This document shows, piece by piece, positions 17,775-20,031 of a stretch of DNA of 64,000 nt (positions are counted from its first letter, which is position 1; each line of letters starts with the position of its first letter). The stretch lies in the NCBI GenBank assembly GCA_965243205.1, contig CBDEUK010000002.1, positions 128,001 to 192,000 on the forward strand, given 5' to 3'. The notes below the pieces were generated by a model. The model was not told the origin of the DNA and did no database searches. It saw only the letters and a program-made list of their open reading frames with translations. A program made the translations under genes and the position numbers. The DNA is from Gammaproteobacteria bacterium. GTDB lineage: Bacteria > Pseudomonadota > Gammaproteobacteria > Eutrophobiales > Eutrophobiaceae.

Positions 17775-18392
17775 ATGAATAAGAAGAAATTAAAAGATGC
17801 TGAGAAGTTATTTTTAAAAAAGCATCCTTTAGGTTTTGAGTCGCCTGACTTACAAGCTTTAGGCAAAAAACATAAAATGACTCAGATGATTGAGATGGCT
17901 CAAGAAAACTTTAAGAAAAAGAATTTTTCTGATTCATCTATCATTGCGGAATACATGGTCAAAATGGTCAGTCGTTCTTCAATGGTATCAATGTTTGAGA
18001 AACCAAAGTTTCGAGATACTGTTTATCAAGCAAGTGACGAAGAACGAGAGCAATTATCAAAAGGCCTAAAATCGTTTTTACATGGCAGTCAAAAAAGAGG
18101 ATTTGAAACACTAATTGATGTATTGCTTCCTTATAAACTGGCTAAGTGGTCATTAGTGACGGTGATTCCAAATTATTATAAACCAGATGATGAAGTGTTT
18201 ATTAAACCGACAACTGCAAAAGGGGTTATAGAATATTTCGAATTGAAAAATTTAACATACAAACCTCAACCCACTTGGGAGTTCTATGAGAATTATCGCG
18301 ATGTTATTTTATCAATGAGAGAACAAGTCGATGATTCCGTAGCACCTAATAATGCTGCGTTCTGTGGTTTTTTAATGATGAGTATGAATTAA
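17775..18392 (+). CDS. Conserved hypothetical protein
   Basis: 205-aa ORF with RBS (AAGGA); no family confidently recognised. Confidence 0.6.
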   Translation: MNKKKLKDAEKLFLKKHPLGFESPDLQALGKKHKMTQMIEMAQENFKKKNFSDSSIIAEYMVKMVSRSSMVSMFEKPKFRDTVYQASDEEREQLSKGLKSFLHGSQKRGFETLIDVLLPYKLAKWSLVTVIPNYYKPDDEVFIKPTTAKGVIEYFELKNLTYKPQPTWEFYENYRDVILSMREQVDDSVAPNNAAFCGFLMMSMN

Positions 18393-18404
18393 ACTACTTT
18401 TTAG

Positions 18405-18432
18405 TTGCATACGATTTTAACCTAACTATAAT
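18405..18432 (+). promoter_or_regulatory. sigma70 promoter for the structured leader and downstream ORF
   Basis: TTGCAT(18405-18410)-16 bp-TATAAT(18427-18432). Confidence 0.55.
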
Positions 18433-18435
18433 CTC

Positions 18436-18545
18436 GCATACGGCTTTGGATGGAAGCCTGCCTCGCGAAAGCGTATGTACCATCTTTCTTAAAGCAAGCA
18501 ATTAGCTTGTATATCTTCTCAGGTCCAATAGCGAGTAGGCCCGAT
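18436..18545 (+). ncRNA. Candidate structured cis-regulatory 5' leader RNA
   Basis: GC-enriched island with several complementary segments: CATACG/CGTATG, GGCTT/AAGCC, CGC-GAAA-GCG, CAAGC/GCTTG, GCCTGCCTCGC/GCGAGTAGGC. Confidence 0.5.
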
Positions 18546-18559
18546 TAAATAGAGACGAT

Positions 18560-18997
18560 ATGCAAATGAAAAATTCATCACTTCAATCCGAATCAATCAA
18601 TCTTTTACTAAGAGAAGCGAAACGATTACATCGAGCCGCTAAAGCTGAGTCTTTGCAATGCGCTTTGCCGGTTTTACGCAGATTAATTGCGAGTAATACT
18701 TTAAAAAACATTTCTTTAGTAGCATTACATAGAAAAAGAGAAATTATTCAACGTAAACATATCTTGAATATGTTGGCATATGAAGTCGGTTATAATAATT
18801 GGGCTGAATATAAACAAGAGATGATAGCGGGCAGAACAATAACAACAGAACATTACTCAATACTTCTTAAAAATACGGGATATCCAAACCAGTGGTTTTC
18901 TAATCTTAAGGAAGCAAAAGAATATGCTCGTATTAATGGAGGAAAGCCAATTCCTGTTGGTAATCAAGCTGTTGTTATTGTAGGAGAATCGGCTTAA
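18560..18997 (+). CDS. Hypothetical basic helical protein
   Basis: LLREAKRLH...LNMLAYEVGYNNWAEYK, resembling the AKRL...A.E.GY..W helical module found in glyoxalase-superfamily-annotated and ankyrin-fusion proteins. Confidence 0.6.
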   Translation: MQMKNSSLQSESINLLLREAKRLHRAAKAESLQCALPVLRRLIASNTLKNISLVALHRKREIIQRKHILNMLAYEVGYNNWAEYKQEMIAGRTITTEHYSILLKNTGYPNQWFSNLKEAKEYARINGGKPIPVGNQAVVIVGESA

Positions 18998-19182: not shown

Positions 19183-20031
19183 ATGGCTGATCAAGAAAAT
19201 ACTAACTATTATCGCATTGCTCAGGCGATTGCATATATTGAAAAGTATTTTAAAGAACGGCCCTTATTAGATGACATTGCTGCCGAAATTGGTCTTAGTC
19301 CTTTTCATTTCCAACGTTTATTTACTGAATGGGCGGGAGTCAGCCCAAAAAAATTCATGCAATACCTAAGTATTGAATACGCTAAGAATCTATTGAAAAA
19401 TGAACAGGCAACATTATTAGACACTGCTTATAAAACTGGTTTATCCAGTACAGGTCGCTTGCATGATTTATTTGTCAGTATCGAAGGAATGACACCTGGT
19501 GAATTTAAAAATGGCGGCGAGAAACTCACCATCAATTATTGTTTTGCAGAAAGTCCATTTGGTAAAATGATTGTGGCTTCAACTGAAAAAGGAATTTGTC
19601 ATATGTTTTTCAATGATAATGAAGAGCAGGCATTATCCGACCTTAAACAACGTTTCCCAAATGCACAATACCATCAGCTTCATGATAAGTTTCAACAAGA
19701 TGCACTGTTTATTTTTCAAAAAGACTGGAAACAGCTCGATCAAATTAAATTGCATTTAAGAGGTACAGAGTTTCAGCTAAAAGTCTGGGAAACGCTACTA
19801 AAAATTCCAATGGGTAAATTAACTACCTATGGCAGTATTGCTGAACAAATCGCTAGACCAACAGCTTCGCGGGCAGTTGGTACTGCCATAGGATGTAATC
19901 CTGTGGCATTTCTTATTCCTTGTCATAGAGTGATTCAAAGTAGCGGTAAAATCGGTGGTTATATGTGGGGCAATATTCGTAAATCAGCCATGATAGGCTG
20001 GGAAGCATCAATAATAGATAAGCAAAAATAA
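19183..20031 (+). CDS. Bifunctional AraC-HTH / O6-methylguanine-DNA methyltransferase (Cada2-like adaptive-response regulator)
   Basis: LSPFHFQRLFTEWAGVSPKKF, GRLHDLF, GTEFQLKVW, ASRAVGTA, IPCHRVI; no N-terminal Ada Zn domain. Confidence 0.88.
   Translation: MADQENTNYYRIAQAIAYIEKYFKERPLLDDIAAEIGLSPFHFQRLFTEWAGVSPKKFMQYLSIEYAKNLLKNEQATLLDTAYKTGLSSTGRLHDLFVSIEGMTPGEFKNGGEKLTINYCFAESPFGKMIVASTEKGICHMFFNDNEEQALSDLKQRFPNAQYHQLHDKFQQDALFIFQKDWKQLDQIKLHLRGTEFQLKVWETLLKIPMGKLTTYGSIAEQIARPTASRAVGTAIGCNPVAFLIPCHRVIQSSGKIGGYMWGNIRKSAMIGWEASIIDKQK

Follow-up and report, generated by a model that had tools for sequence, protein, structure and literature searches.

Several riboswitch classes, among them SAM-II, preQ1-II, guanidine-III and fluoride, control translation by hiding the Shine-Dalgarno (SD) sequence of their gene within a pseudoknot or a helix. 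The fluoride, guanidine-I and guanidine-II, Li+/Na+ and azaaromatic yjdF riboswitches are 'on' switches that guard against toxic ligands, and some classes precede a single gene family. Ribosomal proteins and some RNA-binding proteins regulate their own translation through their own leaders, and the hok, tisB and zorO toxin mRNAs, like the cspA leader, have a ribosome-binding site that opens only once the RNA has been remodelled. More generally, a structured leader with two pseudoknots and dozens of invariant positions that also locks the ribosome-binding site is a signature of riboswitches and of specific RNA–protein control circuits. Here we describe a leader from a 64,000-nucleotide (nt) stretch of the genome of a Gammaproteobacteria bacterium (contig CBDEUK010000002.1; 'the window'), where it precedes the gene for a 145-amino-acid (aa) basic protein of a family without a name (18560–18997, + strand). 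It is a conserved, covarying 5′ leader with pseudoknots, in which the SD sequence and AUG of the gene are themselves paired. It is found only with this gene family and, being absent from Rfam, appears to be a previously undescribed RNA element. With somewhat less than even confidence, and from sequence comparison, we propose that it is a new cis-acting RNA controlling translation of the gene that follows, riboswitch-like and with a small molecule or an ion as its effector.

The comparison with these systems is instructive. Like the SAM-II, preQ1-II, guanidine-III and fluoride riboswitches, the leader lies in a 5′ untranslated region in Proteobacteria, adopts a compact pseudoknotted fold with many conserved unpaired bases and takes the ribosome-binding site into its structure, but it is larger (~120 nt, four helices, two pseudoknots), has no match in Rfam and accompanies one protein family only. 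With the 'on' riboswitches for toxic ligands it shares a ribosome-binding site that would be closed by default and an association with mobile genes that include one for a membrane protein; the first gene here, however, encodes a soluble basic protein and not an exporter. Leaders of ribosomal proteins, such as the S15 leader (RF00114), are similar in being protein-specific, in placing a pseudoknot at the ribosome-binding region and in pairing one RNA with one gene, whereas the present gene is not ribosomal, the RNA occurs across two classes of Proteobacteria and is better conserved than the protein it accompanies, and the predicted lock would be stable without protein. The hok, tisB, zorO and cspA messages also have a long conserved 5′ leader that closes the ribosome-binding site, in contrast to which we find no conserved antisense or small RNA gene here, and the encoded protein is not a small hydrophobic peptide and has no cold-shock domain.

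A first-pass annotation of the window had proposed a structured leader paired with an uncharacterised basic protein, and conservation and covariation upstream of homologues were looked for and found, at 31 loci and then in 37 sequences. Homologue-encoding DNA from 17 genomic and 16 metagenomic loci included 3 duplicates, leaving 30 distinct loci and, with the window, 31. The leader is present at all 30 of the other loci. An alignment of the 31 leaders made with MAFFT and fitted to no structure (A3) has 135 columns, 37 of them invariant and 25 near-invariant. Compared in pairs, the leaders are on average 70.5% identical, the codon-aligned coding sequences 54.3% and the proteins 49.4%, and the average falls to 34.9% over the 80 nt that precede the −10 region. 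For pairs of loci with proteins less than 50% identical, the leaders are still 67% identical and the adjoining upstream DNA 32%. Translation in frame upstream of the start codons yields odd 'conserved peptides', which reflect this nucleotide conservation.

The pattern of substitution supports a fold of four helices (H1, H3, H4 and H5) and two pseudoknots (PK1 and PK2), each backed by covariation. In A3, standard pairs occupy 93.7% of 1022 cells, against 22.8–42.4% when the pairing partners are slid by 1–3 columns, and double-sided changes occur at 9 of 33 pairs, against 4.8±1.0 in shuffled alignments, none of 500 of which equals the observed count. A 37-sequence alignment, fitted to the nested helices and not to the pseudoknots, is 93.4% paired (21–41% when slid) and contains 16 pairs with double changes (6.1±1.3 when shuffled; 0/500). 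The leader thus has the conserved structure with covariation that a riboswitch aptamer would have (93% paired, 9–16 compensatory pairs). Mapped onto the protein tree, a G-C to A-U change in H4 arose independently in three clades, C-G gave way to U-A in PK2 twice, once in the L007 group and once in L009, and the change in H5 arose once, in the window's own clade. The frequent U-G wobbles are in keeping with an RNA of + strand sequence.

The six elements were derived from the leader alignment and then mapped onto the window, where the whole conserved RNA extends on the + strand from approximately the predicted transcription start to 4 nt beyond the AUG (18438–18566) and matches the covariance model with 86.7 bits (E 2.6e-20); its length is ~120–125 nt. 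All six lie on the + strand, and the pairing figures given for them are from the 37 sequences. The 5′ hairpin H1 (GGCTT 18442–18446 with AAGCC 18454–18458) is paired in 98.6% of cells, with compensatory A-U/U-A changes and six U-G wobbles. Its loop is predicted to form PK1 (TGG 18451–18453 with CCA 18480–18482), in which two G-C pairs are present in 36/37 and 37/37 sequences and a third, variable pair is A-U in 16, U-A in 10, G-U in 1 and unpaired in 10. PK1 has moderate support and appears to be the weakest of the six elements. PK2, a covarying pseudoknot of 5 base pairs (CTCGC 18462–18466 with GCGAG 18531–18535), couples this 5′ domain to the loop of H4; its last pair is C-G in 30/37 sequences and U-A in 6/37. 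Directly 3′ of its first strand lies a GAAAG stretch (18467–18471) of which AAAG is invariant and the first base is G or A.

Between the strands of PK2 lies hairpin H3 (GCAAGC 18494–18499 with GCTTGT 18505–18510), paired in 98.1% of cells and with C-G replaced by U-A in 3 sequences. Hairpin H4 (GGTCC 18522–18526 with GGCCC 18538–18542), whose loop carries the 3′ strand of PK2, has one U-C mismatch in the window. Across the set H4 is paired in 98.6% of cells and shows compensatory changes at 3/4 pairs; the G-C to A-U change accounts for 8 sequences in the three clades, and locus L076 keeps H4 as a fully compensated AAGC/GCUU stem with three compensated pairs. H4 is enclosed by H5 (18509–18520 with 18552–18563), in which an anti-AUG segment (GTATATC 18509–18515) pairs with GATATGC (18557–18563), including the start codon at 18560–18562, and an anti-SD segment (TCTC 18517–18520) pairs with the SD sequence GAGA (18552–18555). 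One pair of H5 is U-A in the window's clade (4/31 sequences, or 5/37 with locus L079 added) and C-G elsewhere. Unaided, RNAalifold recovered H1, H3 and H4.

The lock formed by H4 and H5 is the part of the fold that would bear most directly on function. Minimum-energy folds contain H5 in 23/31 leaders and H4 in 24/31, and for the H5/H4 hairpin alone the calculated energy is −13.4 kcal/mol in the window, reaching −25.3 kcal/mol in other leaders. The nucleotide that follows the AUG (18563 in the window, column 132 of A3) is C in 30/31 sequences and faces a leader G in 30/31, which argues that RNA structure constrains even the second codon; the amino acids that predominate at residue 2 of the family (H, P, R and Q) fit a C at the first position of that codon. 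The divergent subgroup L007 and L080–L083 keeps the SD sequence sequestered with different sequence. An expression platform overlapping the aptamer, as expected of a riboswitch, is therefore predicted, with the SD sequence and AUG in H5 and the H4 loop in PK2. A hairpin of −13.4 to −25.3 kcal/mol with two conserved pseudoknots upstream is not the simple weak hairpin, melting at growth temperatures, of an RNA thermometer, and that candidate does not fit. Nor does an intrinsic-terminator attenuator, for which a GC-rich hairpin and an adjoining U tract would have to be conserved, H3 being flagged as terminator-like only in the AT-rich window copy, the homologues having no U tract after H3, and most of them reading ATACCC at that place.

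The RNA's 5′ end probably lies at or beside the transcription start. A putative sigma-70 promoter (18405–18432, + strand) consists of a −35 TTGCAT (18405–18410), a 16-nt spacer and a −10 TATAAT (18427–18432); a consensus promoter scan omitted this pair because the −35 element agrees with the consensus at 3/6 positions. Across the 31 leaders, a TAnnnT hexamer starts 12–17 nt 5′ of H1 in 30, against 3/31 when the control interval is placed another 40 nt upstream, which suggests that the conserved RNA probably begins at the transcription start. The leader is also richer in G and C than its surroundings (GC 0.42–0.44 across 18400–18549, 0.22–0.37 in the flanks), as the first-pass annotation had observed.

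That annotation had been accurate in placing the promoter and every helix sequence that it named, and the long-range helix that it listed, GCCTGCCTCGC (18456–18466) with GCGAGTAGGC (18531–18540), can be read in the window. Its specific model of two mutually exclusive conformations is only partly supported: column-pair statistics and duplex scans found no conserved alternative pairing, and the alternatives that it offered are not conserved. In its conformation A, the GGCTT/AAGCC hairpin is indeed conserved and covarying, but the outer helix (CATACG 18437–18442 with CGTATG 18472–18477) is paired in 34% of cells, equal to slid controls and hence specific to the window, and the GAAA-loop hairpin CGC-GAAA-GCG (18464–18473) forms its third pair in only 20/31 sequences. 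In conformation B, the CTCGC/GCGAG core is conserved whereas the outer pairs are not, pair 20–104 being possible in 3/31 sequences and pair 21–102 in 9/31. Pairs 17–107, 18–106 and 19–105 (GCC/GGC) are possible in 31/31, yet the bases involved belong to H1 and H4 and covary there, and this outer extension is broken in L076, which keeps H4 through its three compensated pairs. The core is a pseudoknot into the H4 loop and not the closing stem of a nested domain. The hairpin that this domain was thought to enclose (CAAGC/GCTTG, 18495–18509) is conserved and covarying as H3 (18494–18510), and ATCTTCTCAGGT, which had been taken as unpaired, is instead the anti-SD/anti-AUG strand of H5, a helix that had been missed.

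The pairing of this RNA with one uncharacterised basic protein, likewise proposed at first, holds in all 37 instances now known. A covariance model built from the leaders (R1) scores the 31 leaders at 65–124 bits. In the window's 2.79-Mb genome it finds a single copy, and in 10 other genomes one strong copy each, always at the protein gene, with otherwise two matches of ~21 bits. Further searches of 150 genomes in each of three orders gave matches of 41.8–109 bits in 6 new genomes, and every match with an intact gene downstream precedes the same protein family. The resulting 37 distinct instances come from gamma- and betaproteobacterial genomes and from metagenomes, and none stands before another gene. 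As expected of a protein-binding leader, it thus occurs only with its gene (37/37), and the 11 genomes hold no strong copy in any other place; the suggestion that similar leaders often precede other genes with the helical module of this protein found no support, each of these genomes having one strong copy only. A second model, R2, run over one such order-level set of 150 genomes, contributed nothing beyond two chance matches of 23 bits with no gene of the family nearby. In viral contigs, a 22-letter pattern picked out 27 stretches, none of them genuine by the covariance model (best 17.7 bits).

Three loci suggest that the RNA and the gene share a fate. In the genome that holds the intact L076, two 46-bit copies of the leader (L077, 1486–1750, and L078) lie in a 2.4-kb repeat, 99.6% identical, and precede only a frameshifted remnant of the protein gene. 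At L018 (3876–4480, identical to L034) the gene is frameshifted near residue 50, PK2 contains a mismatch (GCAAG) and the SD sequence reads GCAG where GGAG would be expected, so that RNA and gene seem to decay together. One further genome carries two contigs, L080 and L084, with identical leaders (71.3 bits each) and proteins that differ at two residues near the C-terminus, which indicates that the module can be duplicated.

The element appears to be new. Against Rfam 15 (4227 families), the only match above gathering score in the window is an S15 leader elsewhere, and at E≤10 no family matches any part of the leader that precedes the ribosome-binding site. Two snoRNA matches on the minus strand (E 6.6 and 8.9), both due to chance, cover only its last 10–26 nt and the start of the gene. 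A scan of five other representative leaders likewise gave no match. A keyword search of the published riboswitch and motif literature did not turn up the element, which supplementary motif lists could still hold, and no matching motif was found in the parts consulted of Brewer 2021 (PMC8632094) and Narunsky 2024 (PMC11109978). The novelty relative to Rfam that had been anticipated is thereby borne out.

The protein itself offers few functional clues. A large protein collection holds 27 homologues of 123–171 aa, with 18 invariant residues in common, and a profile search of 1.84 billion cluster representatives returned 255 at E≤1e-3, of which 86 reach E≤1e-10. Isoelectric points of 9.2–10.7 make each of the 28 members checked strongly basic. 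No Pfam, NCBIfam, PHROGs or PADLOC family matches the 145-aa protein, family scans recognised no RNA-binding domain in it, and its sequence profile found none of the PDB chains. An AlphaFold model (pLDDT 78.8) predicts five N-terminal helices followed by a small beta-alpha-beta-beta C-terminal unit, for which Foldseek gave no match in the PDB (best E 0.97) or BFVD (best E 0.077). The Glyoxalase_8 family (PF20066) was considered and rejected, as 0/28 members match it at E≤1. Matches of 16.8–17.8 bits in 3/10 distant relatives lie below the Pfam cut-off of 23.7 bits and, like an ESM Atlas feature score of 0.79, are a lead only; the single PF20066 gene found in 5 genomes is without a copy of the RNA. 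Weak NosL-like matches occur in 8/28 members (best E 0.0014).

From this structure we infer a mechanism of translational control in cis. As the comparison shows, the leader comprises a 5′ domain, in which H1 forms PK1 through its loop and is followed by H3, and a 3′ lock, in which H4 sits atop H5, whose strands pair the SD sequence and the AUG, with PK2 tying the H4 loop back to the 5′ domain. Since the lock would be stable on its own, the default state is expected to be 'off', and binding of an effector to the knotted 5′ domain may then alter how tightly the lock is held, so that the leader probably switches translation of its gene on or off. The effector would have to occur in all of the hosts, as the promoter travels with the leader and the gene from one distant bacterium to another. 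It would most likely be a small molecule or an ion, which would make the element a riboswitch, probably of the 'on' type and guarding genes for stress responses or detoxification. We place the riboswitch first because conservation is higher in the RNA than in the protein, the fold resembles an aptamer, the lock has to be opened rather than closed and the module would function in very different hosts. In its specific form the proposal is a possible one, held tentatively: a new orphan riboswitch class whose 5′ domain may sense a probably harmful small molecule or ion and unlock a mobile operon that encodes the basic protein and often a DUF4281/ABA4-like membrane protein and an AAA_33 kinase.

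A number of observations weigh against this proposal. The genes suggest no ligand, and association with one protein family alone is commoner among protein-specific leaders. Close relatives make up much of the set of 37 sequences, and cell counts therefore overstate the independent support; the transcription start is placed from the −10 hexamer alone, and the direction of control is read from the stability of the lock only. The variable pair of PK1 is open in more than a quarter of the sequences (10/37). Single-sequence folding does not set the leader apart, as the window copy has a z-score of −0.81, with 38/200 shuffles folding equally well, and six other leaders (z −1.56 to +1.18) do not fold better than shuffles. 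Finally, column-pair statistics and duplex scans did not find a conserved alternative pairing, or anti-sequestor, that would free the ribosome-binding site.

The main rival, which we consider rather unlikely, is autoregulation, in which the encoded basic protein would bind its own leader, perhaps as a mimic of its cellular RNA target, and adjust its own translation. The strict one-to-one pairing of RNA and protein (37/37, with no other gene) is what such a circuit would produce, as are the uniformly basic character of the 28 members checked, the want of any match to an enzyme-like family or fold, and the joint decay of RNA and gene at L018 and L077/L078; an effector encoded within the module would also explain how it functions after transfer between hosts. 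This reading has more difficulty with the lock, because the hairpin over the SD sequence and AUG would already be stable without protein, at −13 to −25 kcal/mol: a repressor then seems redundant, and a protein that activates its own synthesis would be unusual. Greater conservation of the RNA than of the protein also argues against it, as does the failure of family scans to recognise an RNA-binding domain. With regard to mimicry, when the leader was compared by blastn-short with the rest of the genome, rRNA genes included, no similarity emerged beyond chance matches of 12–16 nt.

The lock may instead be opened in some other way, by nuclease removal of the anti-SD strand, by a general host factor such as a helicase or ribosomal protein S1, or by temperature. 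A stable lock with no conserved alternative pairing, in a module that is small and mobile, is compatible with such opening, which we nevertheless regard as quite improbable: two covarying pseudoknots and 37 invariant columns exceed the needs of a simple lock or thermometer, hairpins of such stability would not melt at growth temperatures, the flanks hold no conserved sequence for a partner small RNA gene, and host-specific factors poorly fit transfer between classes. It is more improbable by far that the conservation has nothing to do with RNA and reflects a DNA-level site, such as an operator, or the recent spread of one segment. The promoter directly upstream and the horizontal mobility of the module would suit that explanation. 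Compensatory changes that preserve pairing in six helices would not, nor would the U-G wobbles, which on the other strand are A-C mismatches, nor the divergence, noted above, of upstream DNA next to conserved leaders. The riboswitch-like reading is the one that we prefer. If the element is indeed an orphan riboswitch, it would point to a new response pathway, and the identity of its effector would give the protein a function and maybe also the DUF4281-like membrane protein and the AAA_33 kinase.

The surroundings of the module are consistent with its mobility. In the protein tree, Pseudomonas copies sit among Burkholderiales copies, a mixing of taxa that fits transfer of the whole module between hosts, and the family travels between gamma- and betaproteobacteria with its own promoter and leader. 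Outside the leader and the gene, we found no conserved flank able to hold a partner small RNA gene, and neighbouring genes vary between loci. In a scan of 37 sources, five of which are shorter than 1.4 kb and unable to show a neighbour, a gene for a PF14108 (ABA4-like/DUF4281) membrane protein lies downstream in 10 (10/37; L010, L013, L015/L032, L016, L017 and L080–L083), often overlapping the stop codon, and a gene for an AAA_33 P-loop kinase lies downstream in 4 (L014, L076, L080 and L081). Our look at the literature on PF14108/DUF4281 turned up plant and algal titles only.

Within the window, the 145-aa protein has no counterpart in 40 searched relatives of the genome (0/40). Directly upstream, an open reading frame of 205 aa (17775–18392, + strand) belongs to no family and is found in 0/25 related genomes; it and the focal gene have the look of a small islet specific to the strain, with a LolA-like/DUF1329 gene cluster on one side and an Ada-like gene on the other. 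The latter (19183–20031, + strand), 185 nt after the focal gene, encodes a fusion of an AraC-type helix-turn-helix domain with a methylguanine-DNA methyltransferase, and is not a conserved neighbour at other loci. Further downstream, in the rimP-nusA region, lies the window's S15 leader (RF00114; 26332–26448, + strand), which scores 39.7 bits against a gathering score of 39.5.

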